A stretch of DNA of 64,000 nt from Fibrobacteria bacterium (GTDB lineage Bacteria; Fibrobacterota; Chitinivibrionia; Chitinivibrionales; FEN-1185). Every line of letters begins with the position of its first letter. The stretch's first letter is position 1. The DNA is taken from contig JBBIGR010000022.1 in assembly GCA_037447435.1 (NCBI GenBank), forward strand, positions 1-64,000. The letters run 5' to 3'. This document shows positions 9,001-24,000 of the stretch, piece by piece. The position numbers are program-made.

Positions 9001-12000
9001 TATAGGCCTTTTATAGTTTTTTTTATCCAGAGAAACCATGATTTCCTTTTCGAAACTACGTAAGATCAAAAAAAAACGCATACTGGTTTTGTCGGCCGCC
9101 GGGCCGCGTAGCGGTATACAATGCGTCTATATCGGAGCGCAAACCGATTCTTGGGAAGCTTTGAGCCAGGCCGTTGTGCCCTATCCTCAGCATATAGACG
9201 ATCTTATCGATTCTCTGTTGCTCGACCCTTCGGCAATGCTGTCGCTTGAAAAAACGGCGTGGCTTGACAAAAGAATTACCGCATTGCTTTTGGAATGCGC
9301 AAAGAACGCATTGGCCCACGCCCATTCTTCGCATCGTCAACCTCATGTCGTGGTTGTCAATAAATTGTGCCTTTTCAACGGCAAATGCGATGAAAATGAC
9401 TCCATGCAAAACTGGGAATTGTCTTTCGGGGACGCTCAGGTCGTTGCCGCAGCGCTTCGTGCGCCCGTGATAACGGATTTTATCCGGCAGTCCGTGGTTT
9501 CGGGCGGTCAGGGGCAATTGCCCCTGTTTCCGGGAAACGTCAAAATTGCAAAAAACAATGAAGTGATTTCGGCATATTTGAATGTAGGTCTTATTTCCCG
9601 GTTGACGGTACTCGATAATCAGGCAATGCATACCATTATCGACAGTGACGTCGGTCCCGGGACATGTCTCATAAATATGGCTGCCGGAGATGCCGGCTGT
9701 GAAAACGGCTTTGATCGCGACGGATCGGTTGCTGCGCAAGGCAAGGTAGACAACTCCTGTGTTGAAACCTTAATCGCTTTGCCGTGGTTTTCGCTTCCGA
9801 TTCCCAAGCAGGGATCGATACGTGAATTTAGCGCCATGTATCGTCATCCCTGTGTGACGGCGCTTTCAAAAATCGACAGGATAACGACCTTTACCGCATT
9901 AACCGCACGATCTGCCTTTGATTTTTTCAAGCAACAGTATCGTCATGCTTTGGCTCCGGAAATAATCCATATATGCGGCGGCGGTGCGAACAATTTGACC
10001 TTGATGGAGTACCTGTCCACTTATTTTGACCCGTTGCCCGTTAAAACCGTCGAGGAATCCCAAATAGAAGCGACCATGTTTTTTCCGCTATCCCTCGGTC
10101 TTACGGTGAATGATTACCTGATTGGAAAAATCGCCCCGGCACAAAACAGCGATTTGTCGTCGGTCGGCAGATGGGTGTTTGGGCAATGAAAATTTCAACG
10201 TTGTTGTTGCCGCTGGAAAAAAACCATGATATAATTTTTTATCTGAAATTTTCTTTATTTACAAATAGAGGCTTATGAATACTACGATACTTGTGGTCGA
10301 CGATTCCAAAATGCATTTACATCTTATGGATAAAATCCTCCGCGATTTAGGGTATGTCAATATTGAGTTGGCCATATCCGGGGACGAGGCGAAAAAGGCG
10401 ATCAATACTAAAACGATAGACCTCGTGCTTTCGGATTGGCATATGCCCGGCCTGTCGGGGTTGGATCTTTTGAAGTTTGTCCGTTCCACGCCCCGTGTTT
10501 CGGCAATCCCGTTTGTCATTATCACCACGGAGCACGATAAATCGGTCATTTTTGAAGCTGCAAAAGCGGGGGTGACCAATTATGTTTTCAAACCGATCAG
10601 CAAGGACATTTTAAAAAAGAAATTGTACGACCTAGCCAAATTGTTTCCCTCCTTAAATCCGCCTCATGAAAGTTTGTAACGCTTTCCAAACCATAGGTTA
10701 TTTTTACCGAATCCATTCCTTATCCCGGATTTGTTTTTCATAAAGGTTTGCAATAGTGAAAATCACTTTCGTTTATCCGCGTTTTGAAAAGTTTCTTGCC
10801 AATAATCCGGAACTCGACAGAGGGCTCATCGATTATTTCCTCGGCGATTTTACGACGCCGCCTTCGTTGGGTATTCCCATTTTGGCATCGATGACGCCGC
10901 CCCATCATGAAATCGAGCTTGTAGACGATAATGCGGGAGACCGTGTCGATTTTTCAAAAGACGCGGATTTGGTCGCCATCAACTGTTTTACCCCGCAGGC
11001 AACACGGGCATTCGAACTTGCCGACGGGTTTCGCGCGCACGGCAAAAAAGTGGTCATGGGCGGCTTTTTCCCTTCGTTTATGGTTGACGAATGTCTTTTG
11101 CATGCGGACAGCGTGAATGTGGGGGAAGGCGAGCCGACCTGGCAAACGATCTTGGACGATTGCGAAAAAGGTCGGCTGAAGCGGATTTACAAAGGCGGAT
11201 GCACCTACAACTTGGCGGACATGAAAATACCGCGACGGGATTTGTTTTACAAAAAAGATTATTACGATTGGGACGAAGATTTGGTGCAACTGACGCGCGG
11301 TTGCAGCTATTCCTGCGCCATGTGCGCCATACCCACGCACATGGGCGGCCGTATCAGGTTCCGTCCTATCGACAAGGTCGTAGAGGAAATCCGGCAGCTC
11401 AAATACGAAAATGTGTATCTGGCCGACGACACGTTGTTTTTTCCGCAACGTAAAATGATGGAATATGCAAAAGCGTTGCTCGAAGCGCTGGTACCGCTTC
11501 ACAAAAAATATTTCGTCAGCTCGACGATCGCGCTCAATACCGACGATGCGTTTCTTGATCTTATGGCCAAGGCCGGGGTGAAAAATTTCTACTGTACGCT
11601 CAATGTAGATCCTGTTTCCATTAAAGCCTTAAGCGGCGGCCGGAAAGAACGGCAGTTGTTGATCGATTTGGCGCGGAAATTAAAGGAACGCGACATCAAT
11701 TTCTTCGCTTCCTGCGCATTGGGCCGCGACTGGGACGAAAAAGGCGTGAGCGACAAAATCACGGCGTTACTTGACGAAGCAGATATACACACGGCGGAAT
11801 TTTTTATATTTACCCCGTATCCCGGCTCGGTGCATTGGGACCGGCTGGAAAACCAGAAACGAATCGTGGACAAAAACTGGTCGCATTATAACGGCGCGCA
11901 CGTCGTGTTTGAGCCCATGAACATGACCCGCGACGAGTTGTATGCCGAGTTCATCAATGTTTGGAACAGTTTTTATAAAAAGCAAAAAAAAGCGCACGCG

Positions 12001-21000: not shown

Positions 21001-24000
21001 ATGGAAAGCTTCGTAATGTCCCGGTCGATTATTTCGGCCGTTGCTTCGCGCATACCTTGGACGAAAAGATCGGTAAGTTGCGCCGTATATCCGTTTTTTC
21101 GCGGATAGCTTCGTAATAATAAAATTTTCATATGGATCCGTTTATCATAGCAAGGGTGAGATTGCCTTTGGCGATAATTTTATGCTTTACATGTGCTTCG
21201 ACGGCATACGTAAACAAGGTGCCGAAATTCCGTTCGAAGGAAGAGACAAGCGATAGCGTTTCGCCGGGGTACGATGGATTGATAAATTTCATTGTCGATG
21301 CCGCAAGAAAAAAAATCTGCGGGGGTTCGGTTGTGCCTTGACCCGAGACCTTTTTTGAAAAACCCCATAAAAGCCCGCTTGTTTGCGCAAGCGCGTCTGT
21401 GACCAATACGCCGGGCATGATTTTTTTCTGTGGAAAATGACCGGCAAAATGGGGCTCGTCTTCGCGAATAAGTCGTGTCGCCTCAATATGCTTGTCGGGT
21501 ACGAACCTTACGATTTTGTCGACAAATAAAAACGGGGGCCGATGAGGCAATATCGCACAAATTTCTTCGAGCGTAAAAACCGTTTTATCGTTCATAATCG
21601 CTCCGTCGCAGACGGCGGGAACCGGTCGGATTTCTGGTCCCAATAGGTGTTTTTGTCAAGTTCTTCCAACACCGCTTTCATTTGGTCGTGCACTCGGCAG
21701 GCAAATTGCGACGACCGTTCTTGGGGCAGAGCATTGCTGGGGGTAAGGAAACGGACCGTATAATTGAAACGGAATTTAGGGTATAAACTGCCCTTTGTCC
21801 TGGCCATGAACGGCAAATCGGTATGGATGATGACCGGTACTATCGGCCGTGCGGTTTCCAACGCGATTTTAAAGGCGAAATCTTTAAAATCCATAAGCCC
21901 GCCTTTTTTTCCGCGCGTTCCTTCGGGAAAGACGAGCAAGTTTTTTCCCAGAGCGAGAACTTGTCTGCATCGATCGAGAGCAATTGAAACGCCTTTTATC
22001 GAGTCCGAATCGGCGCGTACGAAATCGAGGTATTTGACAAATGTAGAATATATCGGCAGACGGGAATATTTCGGTTTGATGAGCACGCCGGTTTCGGGTA
22101 AAATCGAGAGCAATAAAAGTGCATCGAGTTTGCCGCGATGGTTTGCAATGAAAATGGAATTTCGCATTTTTGCTTTATCGTATCCTGAAACTTCGGCAAT
22201 CGAGTATACGCCCAGAAACGGCAACCATATCCTGGTAAGAAAAAACGTATACGTTTTTAGAATGCCGTACATTGCTTTTTTCATAAAACCGGGGTAAAAC
22301 GAAAGGACGAGCAAGAGCGGCAGGCCAAGGCACAGAAAAATAACGATTGCAACAAAGTAACTCAAATAACCAAGGCTTGTGGCCAGAATGCGAACAAGAT
22401 ACAGTGGTGATCTTTTTAGCTTTTGTCTCATGGATACCGTATGTTAAAACGGACTTTGGATATCTTTCAATTTCGGCAATGCCGCGTCTTTTTTCGACAA
22501 AACAGGCTGTGTCGCGGGCCACGATATAGATAGATCCCCGTCATTGTAAAAGATGCCAGCATCATGCGACGGCGTATAATATTGATCTACTTTATACAGA
22601 AACTCGGTATCGTTGGTCAACGTGCAGTATCCATGGGCAAATCCTTTGGGAACAAAAAGCATTGTTTTATTTTCTTCGGAAAGGGTTATGCCGAACGACG
22701 TACCGAATGTCGGAGAATCTTTCCGAAGGTCAACGACAACATCGTATACGGCTCCGCGAACGACGCGCACCAATTTGCTCTGCGCATAGGGCGGTTTTTG
22801 GAAATGTAATCCGCGCAATACCCCTTTTTCAAGCGACCGGGCATGATTGTCCTGGACATAATCGGTCGGGAGCCCGTGGTCGGCCATTTCCTTTGAAGAA
22901 TAGGATTCAAGAAAGAAACCGCGATTGTCTCCGTGGACAATCGGTTCTATAATCCATGCGCCCTTAATTTGCGTTTCAGTAAATTTCATAAGTGTTTACC
23001 GTTTCCCGTTTGCCAATTGAAGCAGGTACGTGCCGTAACTGTTTTTTTTCATCGGTTCGGCAAGTTTTATTAATTGGTCATTTGAAATATAGCCGAGACG
23101 GAAGGCAACTTCTTCCGGGCAGGATACCAAAAGTCCCTGGCGGGATTGTATGGTTTCGACAAACACCGAGGCCTGGAGCATGGATTCATGCGTTCCGGTA
23201 TCCAGCCATGCAACGCCGCGCCCGAGCAGTTCGACGTCGAGTTCTCCTTTGGCAAGATAGCAGCGGTTCAAATCGGTTATTTCAAGTTCGCCGCGAGGGG
23301 ATGCTTTGAGGTTTTCCGCATAGCCGACGACCTTGTTATCATAAAAGTAAAGGCCGGTTACCGCATACGGGGACACCGGCGTTTTGGGCTTTTCGACCAA
23401 ACTAATGGGTTTGTTATTCTTGTCTAGTTCCACAACACCGTACCGTTCGGGGTCGTTTACCCAGTATCCGAAAACCGTAGCTCCCTGCTTTTTTTTCGCT
23501 GCGGCCACAAGCGATGAAACGAATCCGTGACCCCAGAAAATATTATCGCCCAGTACCAGGGCTACCGAATCGCTGCCGATAAATTCTTTCCCTACAATAA
23601 ATGCCTGGGCAATTCCTTCGGGTTTGGGTTGAACGGCATAGGAAATCGCGAGTCCCCATTGTGAGCCATTGCCCAACAGGCGTTTAAAGGCTTCGTTGTC
23701 ATGTGGGGTGGTAATAACTAAAATTTCCTTTATGCCGGCAAGCATTAAAATCGAAAGCGGGTAATAAACCATCGGCTTGTCATATACCGGCATCAGTTGT
23801 TTGCAAACAGCCATTGTAACGGGAAAAAGCCGTGTACCCGACCCGCCTGCAAGAATAATACCTTTCATGGATACCCCTGAAAAGATGTAAGGTTAAAGCG
23901 TTTTTAGACCATATAAAATAAATCGGGGCGTTTTACTAAACGCCCCAGAAAAACAAAATACAGGATTCGAATAACGGATTAGTACCTATATCTGGATTAT

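Follow-up and report, generated by a model that had tools for sequence, protein, structure and literature searches.

The window analysed here, a 64,000-nucleotide stretch from a Fibrobacteria bacterium, carries a nine-gene cluster. With somewhat better than even confidence, we read it as a highly reducing type II synthase of the CylI/CylF type that has been remodelled and now produces a modified acyl chain of the membrane. All nine genes named in a preliminary description were found at the locus by gene calls and profile searches (Table 1). The sequence comparisons indicated that the core of the cluster is a cyl (granadaene)-type module, which that description had missed, with counterparts of the fatty-acid-like CylD/CylG/AcpC/CylZ core. 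FabD, an acyl carrier protein (ACP), an active ketosynthase (KS) joined to an inactive chain-length factor (CLF), FabG and FabZ were identified from their sequences as the parts of the synthase. The gene set was as described and the orientation was corrected: the six plus-strand genes converge on the flavodoxin-SCP2, dehydratase and PlsC genes, which are encoded on the minus strand. The dehydratase, described as FabA-like, proved to be of the FabZ type (112 bits versus 29 for FabA; NCBIfam FabZ score 112.3 bits, cut-off 113). Promoter and terminator scans of the locus gave counts at the level of shuffled sequence (20 versus 15.0 and 26 versus 23.3, respectively).

Table 1. Features of the cluster, in positions of the window.
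Feature	Position	Strand	Evidence
Radical SAM-KS-CLF fusion, 1254 aa	10756-14520	+	Pfam; catalytic residues in 28/28 copies
Fusion: Rossmann and radical SAM part	~10756-12030		
Fusion: active KS	~12064-13293		
Fusion: inactive CLF	~13312-14517		
Second KS-CLF fusion, 774 aa, CylI-like architecture, optional	14517-16841	+	Motifs, KS tree
Dedicated ACP	16845-17141	+	PF00550
CylF-family GcvT-like protein, predicted ACP partner	17138-18247	+	Signature residues, complex model, plasmid operons
FabG/CylG-type ketoreductase	18353-19087	+	Pfam, NCBIfam
FabD/CylD-type malonyl transacylase	19092-20036	+	GHSLG motif; Pfam, NCBIfam
Flavodoxin-fold and SCP2 lipid-binding domain protein; candidate ene-reductase or electron donor	20040-21131	-	Pfam
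FabZ/CylZ-type dehydratase	21128-21595	-	NCBIfam FabZ
PlsC-family acyltransferase	21592-22431	-	PF01553; NHxxxxD and FPEGTR motifs

The fused radical SAM/KS/CLF enzyme was confirmed as a single open reading frame, and the motifs reported with it (ACSS/ACSA, GPHA/GPGA, TFNA and YENA) were all verified in the sequence. An alignment of 28 fusion copies showed the CxxxCxxC motif of the radical SAM part in every copy; C183, C187 and C190, as well as KS C603, H735 and H770, were invariant, and WAPQG replaced the His motif of the CLF half throughout (28/28). Mean column conservation was 0.77-0.79 in the radical SAM part versus 0.74 in the KS. From the invariant fusion, modification of the chain on the synthase itself is a fair inference. 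The structure model of residues 1-1200 (pLDDT 82, pTM 0.82) predicted a single pseudo-dimer of KS and CLF, and the top fold match of this part was the PfaC KS-CLF (6riw; 874 columns). The second KS-CLF, in which ACSA, HGTGT and KSMIGH are present in the KS half only, has a KS that is sister to the first (support 95 in the KS tree). It was found in the window as described, but not as a general member of the cluster, being present in 9 of the 21 loci of sufficient downstream length (6 kb or more). Genes on contigs C2 and C30, which had been taken for unfused versions, turned out to belong to paralogous pathways of 28-38% identity without the GcvT-like gene; identity, the KS tree and the radical SAM comparison all led to their rejection as unfused copies. 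The ordinary FAS II operon of the genome is on C27.

The 38 loci reported to carry the fusion, at 52-74% identity and across several phyla, were recovered. In the host order, the fusion was present in 41 of 80 genomes, of which 38 also have the flavoprotein-SCP2 and 39 the PlsC, while 38 of the 80 lack all three. Orthologues of PlsC and flavoprotein-SCP2 co-occurred with the fusion even where encoded far from it; since the genomes are kin, these co-occurrences do not count as independent of one another. Outside the order, the flavoprotein-SCP2 was not found with the window query in two of three fusion-bearing genomes. Its CxxCxxC-x7-C motif was kept in all nine aligned copies, and its best PDB match (7d38; 27 bits over 90 residues, 12-101) indicated a weak likeness to FLR-type ene-reductases. 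Among the 21 loci of sufficient downstream length, ACP and the GcvT-like protein were present in 21/21, FabG in 19/21, FabD in 14/21 and the FabZ-type dehydratase in 13/21. No cultured host is named among the 120 homologues listed of 230 full-length ones, and all organism-bearing names are those of metagenome-assembled genomes. In the window, rmlA-rmlC are found ahead of plsC, as they are in two of the three distant loci fetched. An aryl-polyene-like cluster is directly upstream of the fusion in 5 of the 38 loci, and a glycosyltransferase (family F22, four loci) was seen only inside this upstream block.

The GcvT-like protein was placed with CylF by several comparisons. The motif E[FY][GAS][YF] was present in 22/22 cluster proteins and 7/7 CylF-like proteins, and in 0/29 canonical GcvT sequences; S353, P355 and S361 were common to 6/7, 7/7 and 7/7 CylF-like proteins, respectively. 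Cluster and CylF-like proteins were separated from canonical GcvT with support of 99, in a family tree built without DmdA, LigM and YgfZ outgroups; both this and the KS tree are quick trees with long branches. Bit scores gave a thin margin (110-129 for the CylF link, with canonical GcvT reaching at most 110), and the score of Lactococcus CylF was only 50 bits. Of 30 plasmid matches listed, the four inspected were all operons of ACP, FabG, FabZ, GcvT-like and fused KS-CLF genes, one of them annotated cylF. Glycine cleavage was rejected as the role of the cluster gene: the genome has gcvT, gcvH and gcvP on C17, and N111 and R226, which we take to be canonical T-protein residues with catalytic roles, are replaced. 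Identity with YgfZ was likewise rejected, as KGC[YF]xGQE, presumably the YgfZ signature motif, occurred in 0/120 homologues.

The modelled complex of the CylF-like protein with the ACP scored 0.93, against 0.00 for the best of three controls; the mark applied to this score is reached by 116/157 solved and 2/215 mismatched pairs and is only rough for the alignments used here. The runs shared at least 96% of contacts, and partner pLDDT was at least 87. The DSL motif Ser51 of the ACP, invariant in 22/22 sequences, was absent from the listed interface residues. The model predicts that the family-specific C-terminal motif of the CylF-like protein makes the contact with the ACP, and this protein probably receives the ACP arm in the way that GcvT receives the lipoyl arm of the H-protein. 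According to PMC6985545, CylF is universally conserved among cyl operons, and its role, to supply ammonia for ornithine, is a prediction only. The predicted contact with ACP would give this conserved cyl-operon gene a testable role.

The radical SAM domain of the fusion was upheld, but the B12-binding Pfam assignment was not, its score of 28.2 falling below the curated cut-off of 32.1. Cobalamin binding had been taken for granted in the preliminary description. An N-terminal Rossmann fold was nevertheless present in the structure model. The closest structural match of the radical SAM part was AprD4 (6fd2; Z 31.3, rmsd 2.7 Å, 377 residues, 16% identity), followed by MgmA (Z 26.2). AprD4 binds no cobalamin (PMC12931638), and because this nearest solved fold is cobalamin-free, cobalamin use by the fusion is only putative. 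In the aligned fused copies, Phe stands in place of the customary His of GGxH. Replacement of the GxES motif means that SAM may be bound in an atypical way. In the Atlas, the nearest clusters are of the B12-binding/DUF4070 type, and CobS is encoded in the genome. The fusion is not a member of TIGR04072 (lipid biosynthesis B12/radical SAM; 57 bits, threshold 360); the member in the same genome is on C16 (404 bits).

In the preferred reading of a rebuilt CylI/CylF-type synthase, cycles of KS, FabG and FabZ would yield an enoyl or polyenoyl chain, which the fused radical SAM domain would modify while it is bound to the carrier or the KS. For this step, addition of a carbon from SAM, as a methyl branch or a cyclopropane, is the foremost candidate, though short of an even chance; ring closure is a less likely one, radical dehydration or isomerisation slightly less likely again, and some other chemistry the least likely. 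The flavoprotein-SCP2 may then saturate leftover double bonds or supply the radical SAM domain with electrons, and the PlsC-type enzyme would transfer the chain from ACP to a lysolipid. A bolder proposal, less likely than not, is that one polypeptide both extends an acyl chain and remodels the carbon skeleton of that chain by radical chemistry (iterative methylation, cyclopropanation or ring closure), which would yield an undescribed class of membrane lipid in half of the order and in other phyla, and that CylF everywhere is an ACP-docking enzyme of chain building, with ACP replacing the glycine-cleavage H-protein, rather than the ammonia supplier for ornithine of PMC6985545.

Other readings of the locus were weighed against these data. 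The product may be a conjugated polyene lipid, a pigment or antioxidant such as granadaene, which is an ornithine rhamnopolyene, or the aryl polyenes, with the radical SAM domain making one tailoring change and the flavoprotein serving only as electron source; this is unlikely, though not negligibly so. The cyl-type core, the rmlA-rmlC pair before plsC and the upstream aryl-polyene-like clusters speak for it, as does the result that Pfam and NCBIfam profiles detected no FabI, FabK or FabV among the cluster genes. However, CylE (acyl-ornithine transferase), CylJ and CylAB, as well as a glycosyltransferase and an ABC exporter, were absent from the nine genes and their conserved neighbours, and the flavoprotein itself weakly resembles an ene-reductase. 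Enoyl reduction may also occur in trans, because the housekeeping enoyl reductase was not identified in the genome (no FabK over the cut-off; FabI not in the best five matches of any of the five SDRs scanned). More doubtful is a cobalamin-independent, AprD4-like enzyme that dehydrates or isomerises a hydroxyacyl or enoyl chain by radical chemistry with the flavoprotein as partner reductase. It would agree with the top structural match, the sub-threshold B12 score and the Phe in GGxH, but the identity to AprD4 is low, few short radical SAM enzymes of the type are solved, so that the match may reflect size class, the Atlas neighbours are of the B12-binding/DUF4070 type, and FabZ is already in the cluster.

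A reading in which the radical SAM part is only a passenger or has a regulatory role, its fusion serving co-expression, and the cluster encodes a variant fatty acid synthase whose chains are ordinary or just unsaturated, is very unlikely: an unfused close relative (P0123, 56% identical) and the altered SAM-binding motif favour it, whereas the domain is conserved as much as the KS, the fusion is kept across several phyla and a normal FAS II operon is present elsewhere in the genome. Least probable of all is a counterpart of anammox cluster I making ladderane-like rings. The KS/CLF logic is common to both (preprint 10.64898/2026.05.19.726425), and the radical SAM tree joins the window and anammox-type enzymes, the latter from loci taken from a metagenome scan, in one broad clade (support 90), in separate subclades. 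Against this, the window KS scored 229 bits to amxFabF2 (rank 6) versus 466 for the C2 KS, with 828 for the KS of an anammox-type locus (L125); the anammox-type radical SAM is 29% identical to that of the window, with 30 other representatives among 69 rows scoring higher; the GIES motif is kept only in anammox-type copies and lost in the window protein; and a phytoene-dehydrogenase-like gene, present on C2, was not found among the nine cluster genes. No radical SAM match was obtained at six loci from the phylum search around G201 (genomes of ~0.7-2.8 Mb among the matches listed). Of the earlier interpretation, the membrane-lipid assembly line is supported, with PlsC and flavoprotein-SCP2 tracking the fusion, and the kinship to ladderane genes is weak. 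That analogy is a loose one: neither the KS nor the radical SAM of the window is orthologous to its cluster I namesake, and contig C2 has the closer counterpart.

A literature search, with most subscription journals outside its reach, found no paper on a radical SAM-KS fusion. How a radical SAM enzyme gains access to a growing acyl chain is an open question for ladderanes and little studied for jawsamycin. The natural fusion ties the two activities together, and a small set of soluble proteins therefore allows an in vitro test. The predicted product would be an unrecorded lipid that might serve as a biomarker, in a lineage represented mainly by metagenome-assembled genomes.

Compared with known systems, the cluster is most like the cyl operons of group B Streptococcus and the cyl-like operons of Lactococcus, Bacillus and Priestia, with which it shares FabD, FabG, ACP, FabZ, a CylF-family protein and a KS-CLF pair, the last being one fused gene in Bacillus and Priestia as well. 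A thioesterase is often present and a classic enoyl reductase lacking in both. Unlike cyl operons, the cluster has a radical SAM domain fused to the KS, together with flavoprotein-SCP2 and PlsC, and its KS is outside the Firmicute CylI clade, the two clades joining at an unresolved fork. The nearest relatives are CylF/KS-CLF operons of Enterobacter, E. coli and two other Fibrobacterota (L052, L053, L085 and L086; support 93 in the KS tree and 96 in the GcvT-like tree), and their recurrence in both trees was counted in favour of the CylI/CylF-type reading; unlike in the cluster, genes for a radical SAM enzyme, flavoprotein-SCP2 or PlsC were not seen in their vicinity, and the flavoprotein-SCP2 was not found in genomes G171 or G173. 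Aryl polyene clusters differ by aromatic starter enzymes and glycosyl/acyltransferase, LolA and MMPL genes, and the PfaC didomain is 16% identical to the KS-CLF part, while the cluster proteins contain none of the remaining Pfa domains. The substrate of AprD4 is an aminoglycoside, unlike the acyl substrate proposed here. Anammox cluster I, described in the same preprint as amxACP, amxFabZ, amxFabF2/amxFabFmut, PDH and a B12 radical SAM (10.64898/2026.05.19.726425), also combines an active KS with an inactive CLF, its own ACP and FabZ and a radical SAM enzyme of the same broad family, but in separate genes, with PDH and without CylF. The functional precedent is Jaw4/Jaw5 of jawsamycin, in which the radical SAM enzyme modifies the chain stepwise, after dehydration (PMC13459092, section 4); there, the PKS is of type I and the radical SAM enzyme, HemN-like and of class C, is a separate protein.

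The nine genes lie on a contig (C22) of a genome of 5.05 Mb with 99.6% completeness, six on the plus strand and three converging on them from the minus strand. Across 28 aligned full-length copies of the fusion there is no variation at the cluster cysteines (183, 187, 190) or at C603, H735 and H770 of the KS triad; the CLF half has no such triad, which bears out the preliminary description of a KS with the catalytic Cys and a CLF half without it. The radical SAM part equals the KS in conservation (mean column conservation 0.77-0.79 and 0.74, respectively). The predicted structure of residues 1-1200 (pLDDT 82, pTM 0.82) has the PfaC KS-CLF didomain as best fold match (874 columns), which argues that KS and CLF probably pair inside a single chain. 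Upstream, AnmK keeps its position in three other loci. Genes rmlA-rmlC also directly precede plsC at L102 and L104 (genomes G103 and G137), not in G031, and rml genes also come after a Bacillus cyl-like operon. Directly upstream of the fusion, L027, L029, L031, L032 and L035 carry a block of aryl-polyene-like type with genes for an aromatic amino acid lyase, LolA, MMPL, KS and FabG (on contigs that extend far enough, AMP ligase and glycosyltransferase too); FabD is absent from these loci.

Coordinates of the cluster, its neighbors and related loci
Feature	Location	Coordinates	Strand
Cluster of nine genes	C22 (window)	10756-22431	
Radical SAM-KS-CLF fusion, 1254 aa	window	10756-14520	+
774-aa KS-CLF, ACP, GcvT-like protein, FabG, FabD	window		+
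PlsC, FabZ, flavodoxin-SCP2 protein (flavoprotein-SCP2)	window		-
AnmK and CheY-like response regulator, upstream of cluster	window	9038-10679	
rmlA-rmlC, directly upstream of plsC	window	22444-23868	-
UbiE-like methyltransferase ahead of fusion	L013	9210-10001	
Second B12-type radical SAM ahead of fusion	L036	9773-11230	
CylF/KS-CLF operon with acpS (Enterobacter bugandensis)	L052	7889-14960	
CylF/KS-CLF operon with acpS (E. coli)	L053	895-6718	
PDH-radical SAM fusion	L087	716-3493	
PDH-radical SAM fusion	L088	11483-14278	
PDH-radical SAM fusion	L089	9964-12744	
Other KS and/or B12-type radical SAM cluster	L041 (C30)	7561-11026	
Other KS and/or B12-type radical SAM cluster	L044 (C23)	3676-12353	
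Other KS and/or B12-type radical SAM cluster	L092 (C16)	10206-13027	
Other KS and/or B12-type radical SAM cluster	L042 (C20)	4463-9779	
Radical SAM, FabG, KS, CLF, ACP, 694-aa radical SAM, LpxL-like acyltransferase, PDH-like, radical SAM	L039 (C2)	8780-19651	

Among named relatives, those closest to the fusion are MAGs of Chitinivibrionales and other Fibrobacterota. Of the order's 80 other genomes, 41 gave a radical SAM match at an identity of at least 60%. The match lies in an open frame of 1,060 aa or more in 37 of them and is cut, split or frameshifted in the other four; the 120 other phylum genomes searched, the unpublished G194 counted among them, gave none. The 38 fusion loci bring in Omnitrophota, Verrucomicrobiota and Victivallales, and two labelled Planctomycetales nest within Omnitrophota, so that this label is doubtful. 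No cultured host was seen among the best 120 of 230 full-length homologues. Downstream sequence of 6 kb or more was available at 21 loci (the remaining 17 being too short or without a CLF match), and there identity thresholds of 30-50% recovered ACP (21), GcvT-like protein (21), FabG (19), FabD (14), FabZ (13), thioesterase (11), flavoprotein-SCP2 (10), second KS-CLF (9) and PlsC (8). Whole-genome searches showed that the low flavoprotein-SCP2 and PlsC counts reflect a second locus: among the same 80 genomes, which are kin and not independent, flavoprotein-SCP2 was present in 39 (38 fusion-bearing), a PlsC orthologue in 40 (39 fusion-bearing), and all three were absent from 38. The pattern holds inside six two-genome genera with the fusion in one genome only; outside the order, the flavoprotein was found in one of three fusion-bearing genomes of unstated completeness.

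Judged by sequence, the cluster has a cyl-type core. Searching plasmids with the GcvT-like protein gave 367 matching records, and all four examined among the best 30 carry operons of FabG, FabZ, ACP, GcvT-like and fused KS-CLF genes, one annotated cylF. The region of the Enterobacter operon at L052 also contains ABC transporter and lipoprotein-sorting genes. Bit scores link the GcvT-like protein to CylF thinly, with 110-129 bits against six CylF-like proteins, at most 110 against canonical GcvT, and 50 against true CylF, taken from a Lactococcus operon of cyl layout (GNAT acyltransferase, cylJ). Shared residues point to this kinship more clearly: E[FY][GAS][YF] occurs in 22/22 cluster proteins, 7/7 CylF-like proteins and 0/29 canonical GcvT, Glu stands in place of the canonical Asn at position 111 in 21 of the 22 cluster proteins and 5 of the 7 CylF-like ones, and S353, P355 and S361 are common to 6, 7 and 7 of the seven CylF-like proteins. 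In a quick tree with long branches, no other outgroups and L083 excluded, 29 KS-associated GcvT-like proteins split from 29 canonical ones (support 99). A KS tree (36 rows, drawn from selected loci) agreed on the nearest relatives, the fusions of Enterobacter/E. coli and Fibrobacterota, and added one Streptomyces fusion (support 93); in it Firmicute CylI, the C2 KS and housekeeping FabF formed clades separate from the window KS. The glycine cleavage genes are separately encoded in this genome, and the cluster protein has lost N111 and R226 and retained D96 and E190, positions with catalytic and folate-binding roles in GcvT.

Modelling supports binding of the CylF-like protein to the cluster ACP. 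Three runs gave the complex a score of 0.93, against 0.00 for the best of three controls. Of solved complexes, 116 of 157 attain the mark on this scale, as do 2 of 215 mismatched pairs, a rough guide here because the alignments were custom-made. Contact agreement between runs was at least 96% and partner pLDDT at least 87. The tightest modelled contacts are between CylF residues 353-355 (the family signature) and residues 38-39 and 79-85 of the ACP, which are mostly invariant; Ser51 of the ACP is not among the listed interface residues. That the score reflects model memory is less likely, since the solved relatives are GcvT-family proteins, whose known partner, H-protein, differs in fold from ACP.

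The preliminary description of a cobalamin-binding radical SAM domain holds for radical SAM, given the invariant cysteines, and is less secure for cobalamin: the B12-binding Pfam score is under cut-off, and AprD4, the top fold match (Z 31.3, rmsd 2.7 Å, 377 aligned, 16% identity), is described in a passage of PMC12931638 as not binding cobalamin. MgmA (Z 26.2), TsrM, OxsB, CysS and TokK follow. The best NCBIfam scores were 57-69 bits against cut-offs of 251-650, reaching no curated family. The domain falls in a large group of B12-binding/DUF4070 type, with 2,467 representatives at E ≤1e-30, and the genome encodes CobS; cobalamin dependence is plausible. The SAM-binding GxES motif is replaced, e.g., by CTLNVDP, in the fused subfamily and its C2 paralogues. 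PDH-radical SAM fusions of 926-932 aa in both domain orders, P0125 included, are a second natural fusion of this family, and the TIGR04072 member of the genome is on C16.

In the proposed pathway, the chain would be built on the dedicated ACP by the CylI-like KS-CLF, following established type II synthase logic, with the CylF-like protein predicted to dock on the ACP. The fusion and the co-occurrence suggest that the radical SAM domain would modify the chain while on the carrier, that flavoprotein-SCP2 may take part, and that PlsC would transfer the chain to a lysolipid; we give these three steps, within the whole pathway, somewhat better than even chances. No description of the fusion was found in the literature searched. 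For Chitinispirillum alkaliphilum, a passage of PMC4814513 lists seven polar lipids, two of them unidentified. The CxxCxxC-x7-C motif of flavoprotein-SCP2 is kept in 9/9 aligned copies, and its best PDB match is 7d38 (27 bits, residues 12-101 only), a code occurring once in PMC7862272, which describes a flavin ene-reductase of about 310 aa without direct NAD(P)H use. An ene-reductase role is a lead only; if flavoprotein-SCP2 did reduce enoyl chains, the lack of FabI, FabK and FabV in the cluster need not mean a polyene product.

Kinship to the anammox ladderane genes, also proposed earlier, stands for KS/CLF logic and not for orthology. According to a passage of preprint 10.64898/2026.05.19.726425, amxFabF2 pairs with amxFabFmut in a KS/CLF-like heterodimer. 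Against amxFabF2 the window KS scored 229 bits, which places that protein sixth among PDB sequences, and the C2 KS scored 466 (next match 333); the C2 CLF scored 204 against amxFabFmut (next match 127). The C2 cluster also has a phytoene-dehydrogenase-like gene, three radical SAM genes and an LpxL-like acyltransferase. A KS similar to the C2 KS is named in strain ANBcel5, which has white colonies (passage of PMC11700989). At L105-L110, the KS has ~50% identity to that of C2. A second KS/CLF-like gene and FabG accompany it in 6/6 and a PDH-like gene in 5/6, with no radical SAM match seen in the six; KS/CLF/PDH modules like these thus occur beyond anammox bacteria.

A metagenome scan returned 80 loci, five of which (L125, L126, L129, L131 and L136) have the complete FabZ-KS-KS-PDH-radical SAM order. 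The L125 KS scored 828 bits against amxFabF2. The radical SAM of L125 keeps GIES, has 29% identity to the window domain (being outscored by 30 other representatives among 69 rows) and shares one broad clade with it (support 90), apart from TIGR04072. Passages report similar clusters in Desulfotalea without ladderanes (PMC2649909), and give as precedents Jaw5, which cyclopropanates stepwise, and the B12-type Grs enzymes, which close rings (PMC13459092). Given the lower amxFabF2 score, the 29% identity and the shared broad clade, the window cluster resembles anammox cluster I in logic but is a different cluster. As for the cyl operon, it comprises 12 genes and folate-pathway inhibitors trigger pigment production in its context (passages of PMC4315905), and CylF is described as universally conserved, with a predicted role in providing ammonia for ornithine (passages of PMC6985545). 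In the window cluster the CylF-like protein persists without CylE.
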